Source of the DNA: Minisyncoccota bacterium
GTDB taxonomy: Bacteria; Patescibacteriota; Minisyncoccia; JBAYJV01
Assembly: GCA_041664925.1 (NCBI GenBank)
Contig: JBAYJV010000001.1
Location: 125,845 to 189,844 of the forward strand
Length of the DNA stretch: 64,000 nt
Direction of reading: 5' to 3'
The notes under the pieces are model-generated. The model worked only from the letters and a program-made list of their open reading frames with translations. It ran no database searches and was not told the origin of the DNA. Position numbers and translations under genes: made by a program. Below are positions 19,842 to 62,507 of this stretch, one piece after another (positions within the stretch are counted from its first letter, which is position 1; the number at the start of each line of letters is the position of its first letter).

Positions 19842-21596
19842 TTACGACTTAATGTCAGTACTTATTTTATAAAAGTCTCTTTCCCGATTATTGATAACAT
19901 AGACGCTTTTCCAATCTCTTCCTGAAGAAACAAATTCTTCCCCGGTTATATTAAGCCAGTGTTTTTGTCCTGACCCATCAATTTCGTAAACTCTTTTATC
20001 TCCATCAGCTCTTACAAAATTACTTTCCTGATAGCGATTTAATTCTGACAAAGAAATTTCTTTAACTAAAGCCCAGTTTAAGTGTCCATAAAAACTAAAG
20101 ATTTTGTCAGATAAAATATGGCGCCTGTAATTACCATTAATTATATAAACTTTATAATCATCTTTTGCCCTGACAAGGTCACCATCTTGAATGAAAGATG
20201 ATTGAGCTTGGTTGGACGAATTAATAACAGATAGCGTTGAAGTTGGAACCGATTCTGTTTCCTGATTGCTCGTAACCGAAAGACTGAAATTATTATAATC
20301 TAAAGTTTCGTCTTGATAGTGACTATTATAAATTAAATAAGGCATGATAACAATTTTTTTAAGATCACCGCCTAGGCGATGCATTGTAATTTCTCCGGTT
20401 TTGCCGTCAGAAAAATTCCAATCGGATACGAAGTAATTTCCCGCCGAATCCATTTTTAAAATTTTCGCTCTGAACTCTCCTCTGGCAGCACTGCCATTAA
20501 AACTAATAACGACTTCGTTGTTGGTATCTTTTTTGGCAGCAATTTCATACCACAAAGGCATCCATTCTTTTATGAGACCAGATCTTAAAATAGCAAGACC
20601 AGGAAAAACTTCGTATTGTGCAGTTGGAGAAACATGGAGATTGCGAAGAAAATAATTTAGAAAACCATACTCAACCTCTTGGCGAGCATCGTTTAAATAA
20701 AGACTAATCATCCAATCGCCAAAGATTTTCGTGAAATCATTGCTTCCCCCAGCGGTACGGAGAGCATTGTTTATACTATCAATACCGACATCGCTATTTC
20801 TTGTCAATTGACTGAAAAAACCATTACCATAGTGATCCGCGAAATATTGTGCAAGCAGATTTATCGGAAGATAATCATAAAGTCTTCCACGCCATTCAGT
20901 TAATGGATCTGAGGGATATTGAAGAAACTTTTCAATCCTTGCTTTTAGATTTGAATTATTATAATCCTCAGTATCATATCCTAAAAATGTTGAAACATAT
21001 TCGCCCCTAAGTTCATTAAGCCAAATGTCTTCAGTTTTAGTTTGAATTCTTTCTTTTTGATTATAGGTAATTAAGTGTTGGAATTCGTGAGCAACATAAC
21101 TTTTGAGTTCCTGATCAAATAAAAAGTCAGCGCTTAAATATATCATTTCTCTTACATTTGAAGCGCTATTTTGCGAAAGAGTCATTTCGTCGGCAGCATT
21201 AAAATATCCTCCCACGCCATCAGTTAGCTTGGTAAAGAAAATGGTAATTCTAGGATCATTGTCAATTCCAGGGTTCCAAATATCCCCAAGAAGCTGTGTT
21301 AATTTTGGATAAATTTCTTGATCAAAGCTTTTTCCCAATTTTTTTATTATTTCTTTAAGTTGATTTTTTTGCTCGAGAGAAAGTGTGTCTAAATAATCAT
21401 CCTCTATGTAATAGTAAGCTCTGTCAGATTCATAATATGATTGCGCTGTTATTTCTTCGCGATTCGTAAAATCATAATAGCTATCAACAAAAAATTTAGT
21501 ACTAGCTGCGCTTACAGAAACTGGAAGAAAATTAAAAGCCAAGCCCAGAAAAAGGGCTATTAATAAAATCTTAAGTTTTGAAAATATTCTTTTCAT
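19842..21596 (-). CDS. secreted zinc metallopeptidase-like protein (HExxH, downstream E) with C-terminal surface-anchor-like module
   Basis: 584 aa with a signal peptide. AHEFQHL...E is a gluzincin-like motif. The C-terminal ~120 aa (DGDLVRAKDDYKVYIING...RADGDKRVYEID...KHWL) is shared with two other secreted proteins in the window. Confidence 0.5.
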   Translation of the reverse strand: MKRIFSKLKILLIALFLGLAFNFLPVSVSAASTKFFVDSYYDFTNREEITAQSYYESDRAYYYIEDDYLDTLSLEQKNQLKEIIKKLGKSFDQEIYPKLTQLLGDIWNPGIDNDPRITIFFTKLTDGVGGYFNAADEMTLSQNSASNVREMIYLSADFLFDQELKSYVAHEFQHLITYNQKERIQTKTEDIWLNELRGEYVSTFLGYDTEDYNNSNLKARIEKFLQYPSDPLTEWRGRLYDYLPINLLAQYFADHYGNGFFSQLTRNSDVGIDSINNALRTAGGSNDFTKIFGDWMISLYLNDARQEVEYGFLNYFLRNLHVSPTAQYEVFPGLAILRSGLIKEWMPLWYEIAAKKDTNNEVVISFNGSAARGEFRAKILKMDSAGNYFVSDWNFSDGKTGEITMHRLGGDLKKIVIMPYLIYNSHYQDETLDYNNFSLSVTSNQETESVPTSTLSVINSSNQAQSSFIQDGDLVRAKDDYKVYIINGNYRRHILSDKIFSFYGHLNWALVKEISLSELNRYQESNFVRADGDKRVYEIDGSGQKHWLNITGEEFVSSGRDWKSVYVINNRERDFYKISTDIKS

Positions 21597-23083
21597 TTGA
21601 AGAATCGTCTCTTTATTTCAATACCCCAAAAAGCAAAAAGAATAGAAGAAATAATCGTGCTTACAAAAAGTATAATTTGAGGTTTTTGGAAAATGGTTTT
21701 TTTAAAGACTCCTGAATTGCTTGTTAATTTTATATCTCTTTGACTGTTTTTCTCTAATTTATTGCTAATTGATTTTGGAAGAATAATTCCCTCATCTGCT
21801 AGAACTTTTTTAATTTCAAAAATATTATCAATGTCGGCTGTAGTTGGAATATTGACCTGTTTTTTAAAATCTGCGCCCAAAACAACTTTAGATGAAACTT
21901 TTTTTGAGGCAACAGTACTGGCAAAAATAATTACCTGGTTTTTTGAATTAGATAGTACGCTATCCTCAACTTTTTTATCGAGAATACTTGTTTTATTGGT
22001 ATTCTTCTCGTCTAGGTAAATAATATTGCTAAATCCTGGGGTTGGGACAAGTGTCCAAAAAAACTTTTCATCTTTTCTAGCCGCAGACATTCCTAGTTTT
22101 GGCTTTTCGTAACTTACCTCATCCGCTAATTCTCCAGAGGGATATGAAAGACGGATTTTGTCTTTATCATTGTTTAAGGTGATTTTTGTAAGCGGTCTTG
22201 GCAATACCAAAAAAGTATTTGGCAAAACAAGGGTATTTTTGGGAAAAATAAAACGATGGCTACTTGTTCCTTCGTCGGCAATTTCCCATCCCGAAATATC
22301 AGCCAAATAACTGGAAAAATTACCAATTTCAATCCATTCATTTTTTTCTTCTTCCGTCAAAGGATCAGGTAAAAATTCGGATATAAAAATCGCCTGCGGA
22401 TAGACATTGACAATTAATGTATCAATGCTAGTAGATTTCCCGTCACCAACCTCAAGACTTACCACATATTTTCCAGATAATTCGTAAAAATGATCAATGC
22501 TCGTTCCTTCTTTAGAATTTCCATCTCCAAAATTCCAAAAATAAACCAGTTCGTCGTGGTCAGGATCAAAAGATTGAGAGCCATCAAAATGGACTGTTGT
22601 TGCAACATTCGTAACAATATCTTGACCCGCTTCTGCTATTGGTCGCTGATTAGCAGAACCACCACTCGTTTGAGAAGTAGAAGTCGCTGTTGAAATTGAC
22701 CCTGTTTCGGAAGTCGTAGTGGCGGTTGATGAGTCAGTAGAGGTACTCGTTGAAGGAACTTGTGGTGAGCTTGTTGAACTAACACACGCTAATCCTTCCT
22801 GTTTTATCTTAGTAAGCGTTGTTTCACCAATACCACTGACTCTTAATAAATCGTCTAATGAAGTAAAAAGCGATATATTTCTTTCCGCAATAATCTTTTC
22901 CACTGTTACGGGACCTATCTGTGTGATTTTATCTAAATTATCTGCTGGCGCCTGATTAATATTGATTTGACCCTGAAGGCATTCAGCAAAAACTTTATTA
23001 AATAAAACAAGACTGCTCACGAAAACCGCCAAAATGAGCAGAAGTTTGCAGGTTTTAACTTTAAACATTGAAACTCTTGGCAA
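21593..23083 (-). CDS. ComEA-like helix-hairpin-helix DNA-binding domain fused to a PKD domain and a lamin-tail domain (LTD), surface protein
   Basis: 496 aa. N-terminal signal/anchor, then ININQAPADNLDKITQIGPVTVEKII...VSGIGETTLTKIK (ComEA HhH pair). A Ser/Thr-rich linker follows, then a PKD-like FDGSQSFDPDHDELVYFWNFGDG, then an LTD (ISEFLPDP...EWIEIGNFS...ISGWEI). Confidence 0.65.
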   Translation of the reverse strand: MPRVSMFKVKTCKLLLILAVFVSSLVLFNKVFAECLQGQININQAPADNLDKITQIGPVTVEKIIAERNISLFTSLDDLLRVSGIGETTLTKIKQEGLACVSSTSSPQVPSTSTSTDSSTATTTSETGSISTATSTSQTSGGSANQRPIAEAGQDIVTNVATTVHFDGSQSFDPDHDELVYFWNFGDGNSKEGTSIDHFYELSGKYVVSLEVGDGKSTSIDTLIVNVYPQAIFISEFLPDPLTEEEKNEWIEIGNFSSYLADISGWEIADEGTSSHRFIFPKNTLVLPNTFLVLPRPLTKITLNNDKDKIRLSYPSGELADEVSYEKPKLGMSAARKDEKFFWTLVPTPGFSNIIYLDEKNTNKTSILDKKVEDSVLSNSKNQVIIFASTVASKKVSSKVVLGADFKKQVNIPTTADIDNIFEIKKVLADEGIILPKSISNKLEKNSQRDIKLTSNSGVFKKTIFQKPQIILFVSTIISSILFAFWGIEIKRRFFK

Positions 23084-62200: not shown

Positions 62201-62507
62201 AATAAACCTTTGTATCACCATCGGCACGATATAAATCTGAGGTGATGTATGAATCTAACACGCTCTGGGTAACAGTTTTAATGCTATCCCATGAGAAGTG
62301 TTTATACATGCCAAAAACCGCTGGATTGAAGATATGTCTCTTGTATCCAAGATTATTAACAATGTAAGTTTTGATTCCATCTGGGCCTCTGATTAAATCG
62401 CCATCATTGATGGTTACTGCTTGCGCAGTTGGAACGAACGTTGCTAAACCTGACACCCATACTATGGTTGAGAGGGTTAACAAAGTTGAGACGATTTTTT
62501 TACTCAT
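59256..62507 (-). CDS. large secreted surface protein (1083 aa) with N-terminal anchor-like module followed by Thr/Ser/Ala-rich Ig-like beta-sandwich repeats
   Basis: Signal peptide MSKKIVSTLLTLSTIVWVSGLATFVPTAQA. Residues ~30-150 (INDGDLIRGPDGIKTYIVNN...YRADGDTKVYSL...KHWL) are homologous to the C-terminal modules of 19842..21596 and 49077..50420. Confidence 0.65.
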   Translation of the reverse strand: MSKKIVSTLLTLSTIVWVSGLATFVPTAQAVTINDGDLIRGPDGIKTYIVNNLGYKRHIFNPAVFGMYKHFSWDSIKTVTQSVLDSYITSDLYRADGDTKVYSLEEVSEVSGSAIKHWLDMTPAEFTAKGYNWNQVFIVNSVEKDYYSTGDPMTASGVITPVGSVSVTLASNSPAASTFVQAQATADLAHYTFTNNSSSEVKVTGLIFNRIGVSADATLSNVYLFDGSVRLTDAATVSSGKVTFNASAGLFTIPANSSKTIAVKSSIADSTSGQTLGVALATVTSAATVSGSFPISGAIHSIASATLATVAIGAPLPSSAATTDPMNDVRIWESTFTVGQRKVNFTRLALRQINSILSADIQNFRLLIDGVQVASQQNLDANGYITFAFNKELQTGGRTVKVIADVIGGSSRIIQMSLRNTADVDLTDSEYGVNVLATGTFAASTANLTVNSGTMTVEKSSTSPSGNVVYGGSDVLLGEWKFTAHGEPIKVETLTAGYAHVNAADASQSSTLRNGKIMVNGSQVGSNTTTAKAGTSFTVNFTVTPGTPVTVQFRADLYDNDASLANVPATDKITAKLVTGSANASKTISLGTYNVPTADSNANQVTVTAGTMTLAKKTNYANQTINVPQTAFKVGEWSLTGGTTEDVNVHTLSVDIDEHSGTSFDYDDLTDMYIVYGSQTSTVKSTATAADNDWSVSFTLAKNQVMTVALYANIGSSVTTSTDSFHTDLTVTGTGATSADSISASSGDIEGQTIIYGAGSITATRSAASADAAIVADNQTVQTVAYKFETLNDSYTITEVVLGITNASAIANVNLKDGSTILKTLPGATAVTFSGLSVPVVANSSKTLTVELELSSVGTGAGTSGSAITTDFTSGKAIAGSTGVEAAISDSTSAGNAMYVYKAIPTVTKVTYSDVQLRNEEEVLLKFTIGSTGGDISWKRLFFDVLKDGATTLATSTTYLYDVTGGANTNVAGSFTGVNLDATTSAATLEFDATAETAVSGSRTYELRSTVSSANADGDYITTSLHQDAIYAAPTSTTAVESADADASIIWSDSSASSHDTTTADWSGDYLVKSLPVQNSLNW

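Follow-up and report, generated by a model that had tools for sequence, protein, structure and literature searches.

A two-unit module shared by three secreted proteins of a Minisyncoccota bacterium, a putative non-covalent cell-wall anchoring domain of Patescibacteria

Three secreted proteins encoded in a 64,000-nt stretch of a Minisyncoccota bacterium genome (contig JBAYJV010000001.1, positions 125,845 to 189,844; hereafter the window) carry at one terminus a homologous module of 117-134 amino acids (aa), and comparison with its relatives suggests, with a probability that we would put at about 0.7, that in Patescibacteria it anchors proteins non-covalently to the wall of the producing cell. 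A carrier protein would be exported by the Sec pathway and its signal peptide cleaved, after which the module would bind to the wall of the same cell, most likely to peptidoglycan and alternatively to a wall-linked glycopolymer, and the bound module would hold its cargo, whether surface layer (S-layer) or exported enzyme, at the cell surface. Of this model, wall binding, the identity of the ligand and the role of the largest carrier in the S-layer are what we infer. Patescibacteria account for a large share of bacterial diversity, and what is known of their envelope comes almost entirely from tomograms and gene lists. The principle of a portable module common to an S-layer protein and exoenzymes is known from the SLH, CWB2 and LysM domains, so that the module extends a known principle rather than overturning one; the novel part is the domain family itself, which is uncatalogued, large, confidently folded and, among the genome loci recovered, confined to Patescibacteria.

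The module, its internal repeat and its family

The three carrier genes are open reading frames (ORFs) on the minus strand encoding proteins of 584, 447 and 1083 aa (Table 1), each with an N-terminal hydrophobic leader; the signal peptides were read from the sequence and not by a dedicated predictor. In the 584-aa and 447-aa proteins the module copies (M1 and M2) are the extreme C-termini and reach the stop codons, and in the 1083-aa protein, whose record (MFA6436794.1) comes from a Candidatus Paceibacterota metagenome-assembled genome (MAG), the third copy (M3) begins directly past a cleavage-like site, AQA followed by V. BLASTP with compositional adjustment gave E 3e-35 and 42% identity for M1/M3, E 1e-24 and 38% for M1/M2, and E 1e-24 and 33% for M3/M2; the three modules are homologous and not merely alike in composition. 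Two short insertions set M2 apart from M1 and M3 in the alignment. A hidden Markov model (HMM) of M1-M3 searched against all six-frame ORFs of the window returned the three copies at E 1e-56 to 1e-63 and no fourth (next best E 0.085), and the cargo parts of the three carriers gave no BLASTP match to one another below E 0.07.

The module is a tandem internal duplication of a unit of about 60 aa. Profile-profile comparison (hhalign) aligned its first and second halves over 51 columns with 97.5% probability and E 6e-12, and in an AlphaFold2 model computed from a 39-sequence alignment (predicted local distance difference test score, pLDDT, 95.7; predicted template modelling score, pTM, 0.85) each half has the order beta-beta-beta-alpha-beta-alpha, that is four strands and two helices, the two halves packing as one compact body or pseudo-dimer. 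The signature, computed on 228 instances from 192 proteins and given in M3 numbering, comprises G6, L8, I9, R10, V17, Y18, I19, K26, R27, I29, P32, F35 (100%), Y38, H40 and W43 in unit A, and S60, L62, R64, D68, V71, Y72, K86, W88, F96, G100, W103, N110, Y117 (97%) and G120 in unit B. The modules are rich in aromatic residues (11-14% F+W+Y), and the three copies in the window have isoelectric points (pI) of 5.0, 7.0 and 8.6 against a family median of 5.2. A preliminary description of this DNA, made from the letters and their translations, had proposed a two-repeat module shared by three secreted and otherwise unrelated proteins at just these ends, and it holds in each respect: the ORFs are as described, the pairwise and half-to-half similarities are significant, the cargo is unrelated and hydrophobic leaders are present.

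Pfam-A and NCBIfam scans of the three proteins gave no match on the module segment at E<=1, the module profile searched against all PDB chain sequences returned noise only, and the family has no entry in Pfam or NCBIfam. No Pfam match to SLH (PF00395) was obtained on the window proteins, and the model is alpha/beta with two repeats, not three-repeat helical. Nor was there a Pfam match on them to PG_binding_1 (PF01471), though orthologues with another N-terminus do match that family. LysM, SPOR, CW_binding_1/2 and SH3b gave no Pfam or NCBIfam match on the module, and EccB (PF05108) none at E<=1 on the three proteins. An LPXTG-like motif and a C-terminal membrane segment were looked for in the three carriers and neither was found, and retention by the module itself fits carriers that have no such motif or membrane anchor. 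These null results agree with the earlier remark that the module could not be mapped to SLH, LysM, CWB, SPOR or sortase signals. A number of other candidates were considered and rejected. The only positions shared with the designed beta-propellers 'Cake' and 'Bagel', to which a single-unit profile pointed in the PDB, are 23 positions of a DGxxYxGxxDGxLYAI-type motif, which is put down to chance; a C-terminal sorting signal (the C-terminal domain of type IX secretion, PEP-CTERM or LPXTG) does not suit a module that is also found N-terminally and is followed by no hydrophobic tail; and an enzymatic domain was, in our judgement, to be set aside, no known family being matched and the units being only about 60 aa long.

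The family proved to be large. A word-indexed search found 46 relatives, all of them unnamed or 'hypothetical' and from Patescibacteria (the same kind of search with a 57-aa unit profile gave 3 matches only), and an exhaustive HMMER search covered 1.84 billion cluster representatives, of which 3607 matched at E<=1e-3; 2378 of these reached E<=1e-10 and 967 reached E<=1e-30. Among 138 new representatives listed from the HMMER matches the module lay solely at the extreme C-terminus in 60, solely 22-62 residues from the N-terminus, just past the signal peptide, in 42, at a terminus with a further copy elsewhere in 28 and internally only in 8, at least one terminal copy thus being present in 130. 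A Pfam census of 69 carriers recorded fn3 (18), Pur_ac_phosph_N (13), cohesin (5), Kre9_KNH (5), beta-helix (4), TIG (3) and subtilase (2), together with trypsin, CARDB, Ig-like and others; these partner domains are all extracytoplasmic, and no lysin catalytic domain occurs among the 25 most frequent of the 46 Pfam families matched. A scan of GTDB species-representative genomes, seeded with two peptide patterns and therefore non-exhaustive, found 34 loci, all 34 in Patescibacteria MAGs (Azam-, Terry-, Portnoy- and Moraniibacteria, Parcubacteria and Paceibacterota), in which the module was again terminal. Carrier genes adjoin each other in four of these loci (L023, L025, L026, L029), and the same three carrier types are found in one related genome (L002, L030, L032). 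The HExxH peptidase with a C-terminal module, which itself has a weak NCBIfam MXAN_6640_HExxH match (E 4e-4) and a weak Pfam DUF2268 match, recurs in 9 Patescibacteria loci with cargo 36-51% identical; a metagenome scan with the peptidase cargo found only relatives 89-91% identical. The HMM of the three segments and the structure prediction that had been suggested as checks have yielded a family of secreted-protein carriers in Patescibacteria loci and a model with high confidence, and neither an assignment to an enzymatic family nor a similarity of composition only emerged.

Two proteins of 1653 and 1655 aa from ENA metagenome contigs (P0047, P0048) have three module copies interleaved with He_PIG/Ig domains and are rich in Ala, Arg and Gly, a composition that suggests a high-GC organism, so that the module may extend beyond low-GC Patescibacteria.

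The anchor slot of the 1083-aa protein

When the cargo of the 1083-aa protein (aa 157-1083) was used as the query at E<=1e-10, 585 homologues were found; most of the best 120 have lengths of 1050-1350 aa and align over 99% of the query at 45-50% identity. A precomputed PF01471 match is attached to 41 of these best 120, and several go under the name of 'peptidoglycan-binding protein' or 'cell wall surface anchor family protein'. In 7 of 8 orthologues scanned the PF01471 match was N-terminal to the cargo, within residues 3-154, which is the slot of M3. The N-terminal regions of the best 120, with signal peptides removed, were classed by local HMMs as PG_binding_1-type in 74, as the two-unit module in 16 and as generic single units, two or three per protein and from the superfamily of the module, in 19; 5 were unclassified, and in 6 the N-terminus was missing or the start of the cargo was not located. 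No unit- or module-bearing protein among these 120 was also of PG_binding_1 type. The N-terminal domains are thus interchangeable and the commonest is an established peptidoglycan-binding family, from which it follows that the module is likely to do the same job, and this is the strongest support available for the anchoring model. PG_binding_1 is a helical bundle of about 60 aa, as against the 120-aa alpha/beta double unit of the module, and has no sequence match to it; the two look analogous rather than homologous. The proposal in the preliminary description that the module targets or anchors proteins to the envelope is consistent with this alternation, with the terminal position, the extracytoplasmic partners and the envelope-associated nearest folds, and with the lack of a match to any known enzymatic or binding family.

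The third variant of the anchor, seen in P0194, P0198, P0267, P0273, P0283, P0295 and others, consists of two or three units of about 50 aa of the type '(D)GTLVKGxxxPxVYLVxxGQKRGFxSxxVFxxLGFxFxNIQxAPxNTFADLPTG'.

The 1083-aa protein is a candidate S-layer protein, as judged from its architecture and the breadth of its family. A full-length AlphaFold2 model (mean pLDDT 83.8) has the order leader (residues 1-30), module, linker and uninterrupted all-beta array (Table 1). A putative S-layer protein of Patescibacteria has been predicted to contain six Ig-like assembly domains (bioRxiv 10.1101/2024.05.28.596244), and the architecture of the 1083-aa protein, an anchor and a linker followed by roughly six beta domains, matches it. 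The same preprint notes that in Paceibacteria homologues of it rank within the top five secreted proteins by expression, and a transcriptome study described those highly expressed proteins as combining a peptidoglycan-binding domain with Ig-like domains (PMC10936435). If the C-terminus lies at the tip then the N-terminal anchor, by our reasoning, would face the cell.

A terminal portable domain common to an S-layer-like protein and to unrelated exoproteins is the arrangement found in the class of non-covalent wall anchors, and SLH provides the closest parallel. Like the module, SLH occurs as tandem units of about 55-60 aa, N-terminally on an S-layer protein and on exported enzymes at one end or the other, and it anchors all its carriers non-covalently to one wall ligand, as is proposed for the module. 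SLH, however, is an all-helical three-repeat pseudo-trimer that binds pyruvylated secondary cell wall polymer (SCWP) and belongs to a Bacillota lineage, whereas the module is alpha/beta with two repeats and has no sequence match to it.

Fold relatives of the unit

Foldseek comparison of the module model with the PDB gave no significant match; EccB1, EccB5 and EccB3 stood at the top of the list, and the nearest solved folds appear to be cell-envelope-associated. The EccB1 repeat is described as a PlyCB-like unit of 51-57 aa with a four-stranded sheet and two helices; the EccB repeats R1/R4 and R2/R3 pack pairwise, and their function has only been hypothesised (PMC4769845). The units of the module have this repeat-unit fold (about 55 aa). 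PlyCB is a wall polysaccharide binder (polyrhamnose; bioRxiv 10.1101/2021.03.19.436156). An intermediate is provided by a protein of 1423 aa from the NCBI metagenome set (P0061), which has sixteen single units in two alternating flavours (A-B-A-B) and a HEWGH zinc-peptidase-like motif in its C-terminal region, and which matches both the module profile (E 1.9e-69) and Pfam PF05108 (EccB; 39.3 bits, cut-off 27). A general unit profile aligned in register with the EccB repeats at E 0.003-0.02, the value of 0.003 being that of a single comparison; the EccB1 sequence used was verified against 3x3m. Direct sequence comparison being weak, the link to EccB rests on structure and on the intermediate P0061, and the module probably shares the EccB-repeat/PlyCB-type unit fold by distant homology without being a member of the EccB family. 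EccB itself (PF05108; PDB 3X3M, 4KK7) has an N-terminal membrane helix and four repeats set around a central beta-sheet core and is encoded in a type VII secretion locus, and the window proteins have neither helix nor core but instead a cleavable leader and two repeats only; no type VII secretion genes were found among the window genes scanned.

PlyCB and the wall-binding domains of enterococcal phage endolysins (LysIME-EF1, 6IST; Lys170, 7D55) gave low structural scores and have no sequence similarity to the module, and they differ from it in being homo-oligomers of separate chains that recognise a target cell and not the producer. No match to the module was found by tblastn in 50,697 phage records. 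Foldseek against viral models (BFVD) did find an uncharacterised 115-aa protein of Rhodococcus phage Weasels2 (E 2e-5) and a 102-aa protein of Streptomyces phage LukeCage, along with weakly matching phage proteins of the CHAP, amidase and lysozyme kinds. The small actinobacterial phage proteins are closer to the two-unit module than any solved structure.

The ligand and alternative explanations

A number of observations weigh against own-wall anchoring. Binding is deduced for the whole family by comparison, that is from the alternation with PF01471, and equivalence of the slot would indicate that the slot anchors in the orthologues, not that the module has the same ligand. The domains matched by fold have a function that is only hypothesised (EccB) or have other ligands (PlyCB, polyrhamnose), and the module halves gave no significant alignment to EccB repeats when their profiles were compared directly. 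Many domains that bind anionic wall polymers are basic, which the modules (median pI 5.2) are not. Finally, the S-layer role of the cargo rests on the predictions of the preprint, and cluster look-ups gave no accession linking the 1083-aa protein to its S-layer proteins.

In one alternative reading the ligand would be a lineage-specific secondary wall glycopolymer instead of peptidoglycan, for instance a heptose-containing polysaccharide such as the neighbouring 25-kb cluster points to, in an arrangement like that of SLH and SCWP. This is a sub-case of the anchoring model, with the mechanism shared and the ligand different, and may be regarded as possible if rather doubtful. All three carrier genes flank or adjoin the Wzx/Wzy-type cluster, PlyCB as the best-studied fold relative binds a wall polysaccharide backbone, and the conserved aromatics F35, Y38, W43, W88, F96, W103 and Y117 would suit such a ligand. 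However, a similar glycan cluster (Wzy_C, GT1, GT9, FkbM methyltransferases) adjoins an orthologue of PG_binding_1 type (L039), which indicates that the cluster is tied to the surface protein rather than to the module in particular.

It is unlikely that the module is a docking or oligomerisation domain that binds a membrane-anchored or lattice protein, or itself, and recruits cargo onto the S-layer in the manner of cohesin and dockerin. The fold relatives are indeed oligomeric (tetramers of the LysIME-EF1 binding domain; the R1/R4 and R2/R3 pairs of EccB), the lack of a basic character would be in keeping with docking and 5 of the 69 carriers have cohesin domains, but the S-layer-like protein itself carries the module, the slot in its orthologues holds a peptidoglycan-binding and not a docking domain, each unit already has the other as its packing partner in a single chain, as the pTM of the model suggests, and no conserved partner gene was seen beside the carrier genes.

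Slightly less probable still is host adhesion, in which the module would bind the surface of the episymbiont's host and deliver peptidase or adhesins there like the binding domain of a phage endolysin. Kuroda et al. proposed host attachment for versions of the same family with a peptidoglycan-binding domain, their hosts being the archaea Methanothrix and Methanospirillum (PMC10936435). Among functionally characterised proteins the nearest in fold are the wall-binding domains of phage lysins, whose target is the wall of another cell, and cohesin, Ig-like and protease partners are compatible with adhesion or attack. To our knowledge, however, these archaeal hosts have no peptidoglycan, so that self-anchoring accounts better for a slot that can be filled by a peptidoglycan-binding domain, and the conservation of an approximately 1100-aa protein in many classes of Patescibacteria whose hosts are not the same points to a conserved self ligand. 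Both docking and host adhesion are made less likely mainly by the cell-proximal position of the module on the S-layer-like protein and by its alternation with PG_binding_1.

It may also be the case, a minor possibility but one to be taken seriously, that the module reads either a Patescibacteria-specific wall glycopolymer, as a second and independent system of the SLH-SCWP type, or host surfaces. If the former were true, one ligand would organise the S-layer and all exoproteins in these ultra-small episymbionts, and if the latter, the module would be a specificity determinant of episymbiosis; on either reading the three anchor types that replace one another on a single S-layer scaffold would reflect envelope chemistries that differ across the radiation.

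As a probable anchor on the producer's own wall, the module would serve as a sequence marker for surface-retained proteins of Patescibacteria, in a family of thousands of sequence clusters whose usual annotation is 'hypothetical protein', and would explain how the predicted S-layer is tethered in lineages without the PG_binding_1 version. It is a small and confidently folded domain that could be used as a probe for the wall ligand, and it would place the EccB repeat, itself enigmatic, within a wider family of units that bind the envelope.

Gene neighbourhood

Between the carrier genes lies a Wzx/Wzy-type polysaccharide cluster of about 25 kb (23444..49017, and also 56483..57433 and 63206..63958), which encodes a Wzy_C protein, a Bac_transf initiating transferase, a Polysacc_synt flippase, glycosyltransferases of the GT1, GT2 and GT4 types, FkbM and other methyltransferases, two UDP-sugar dehydrogenases and several epimerases or dehydratases. 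It includes a GDP-heptose-like set of genes (Table 1), and the NCBIfam curated cut-off was reached in the cluster by the transaldolase alone. The cluster may glycosylate the Thr/Ser-rich proteins; the cargo of the 447-aa protein is 36% S+T. In a genome with the PG_binding_1-type protein (L038) a second PF01471 gene lies within 10 kb, which hints at one anchor type per lineage serving several proteins, as the module does in the window.

Table 1. Features of the window, with coordinates as window positions
Feature	Coordinates	Strand	Basis or remark
Secreted HExxH (HEFQH) putative metallopeptidase gene, 584 aa, C-terminal module	19842..21596	-	ORF, weak family matches
M1, aa 468-584 of 584-aa protein	19845..20195	-	BLASTP; HMM E 1.6e-59
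M1 unit A	20019..20195	-	
M1 unit B	19845..20018	-	
Secreted Thr/Ser-rich protein gene, 447 aa, CHB_HEX_C_1 / Fn3_assoc domain, C-terminal module	49077..50420	-	ORF, Pfam
M2, aa 314-447 of 447-aa protein	49080..49481	-	BLASTP, alignment; HMM E 6e-56
M2 unit A	49278..49481	-	
M2 unit B	49080..49277	-	
1083-aa surface protein gene, candidate S-layer protein, MFA6436794.1	59256..62507	-	ORF, cargo homologues, AlphaFold2 model
Signal peptide of 1083-aa protein, aa 1-30, ending in VPTAQA before V	62418..62507	-	Read from sequence; pLDDT <50 over residues 1-30
M3, aa 31-156 of 1083-aa protein	62040..62417	-	BLASTP, AlphaFold2, internal repeat
M3 unit A	62235..62417	-	
M3 unit B	62040..62234	-	
Flexible linker, aa 153-162 of 1083-aa protein	62022..62051	-	Only non-leader segment with pLDDT <50
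All-beta array, aa 163-1083, roughly six blocks of about 150 aa, presumed lattice-forming	59259..62021	-	AlphaFold2, pLDDT 85-95
Intrinsic-terminator-like hairpin, 12-bp stem, 8 G-C pairs, T-run	59178..59205	-	50 nt past stop of 1083-aa gene; consensus match only
HddC-like transferase	41282..41995		GDP-heptose-like set
HddA-like kinase	41992..42993		GDP-heptose-like set
HAD phosphatase	46180..46704		GDP-heptose-like set
Transaldolase	46728..47447		GDP-heptose-like set
GmhA-like	47444..48031		GDP-heptose-like set

The putative S-layer gene looks monocistronic. It is followed by the terminator-like hairpin and preceded by an intergenic region of about 700 bp (62508..63205, minus strand), in which promoter-like sites were noted at 63169..63142 and 63031..63003 that would imply a long 5' leader on the transcript; no Rfam family matched the upstream or terminator region.

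A gene at 50497..56193 (minus strand) encodes a secreted protein of 1898 aa with highly repetitive Thr/Ala-rich beta repeats and two Big_5 domains, and with no module, LPXTG motif or membrane anchor. On the same strand, 77 bp separate its end from the downstream gene for the 447-aa carrier, and the 447-aa protein could be its wall-attached partner. At 21593..23083 (minus strand) there is a gene for a 496-aa protein with a ComEA-like HHH_3 motif, a PKD domain, a lamin-tail domain and a C-terminal membrane segment. Its stop and the start of the HExxH peptidase gene share 4 bp, which suggests that the two genes are co-transcribed.

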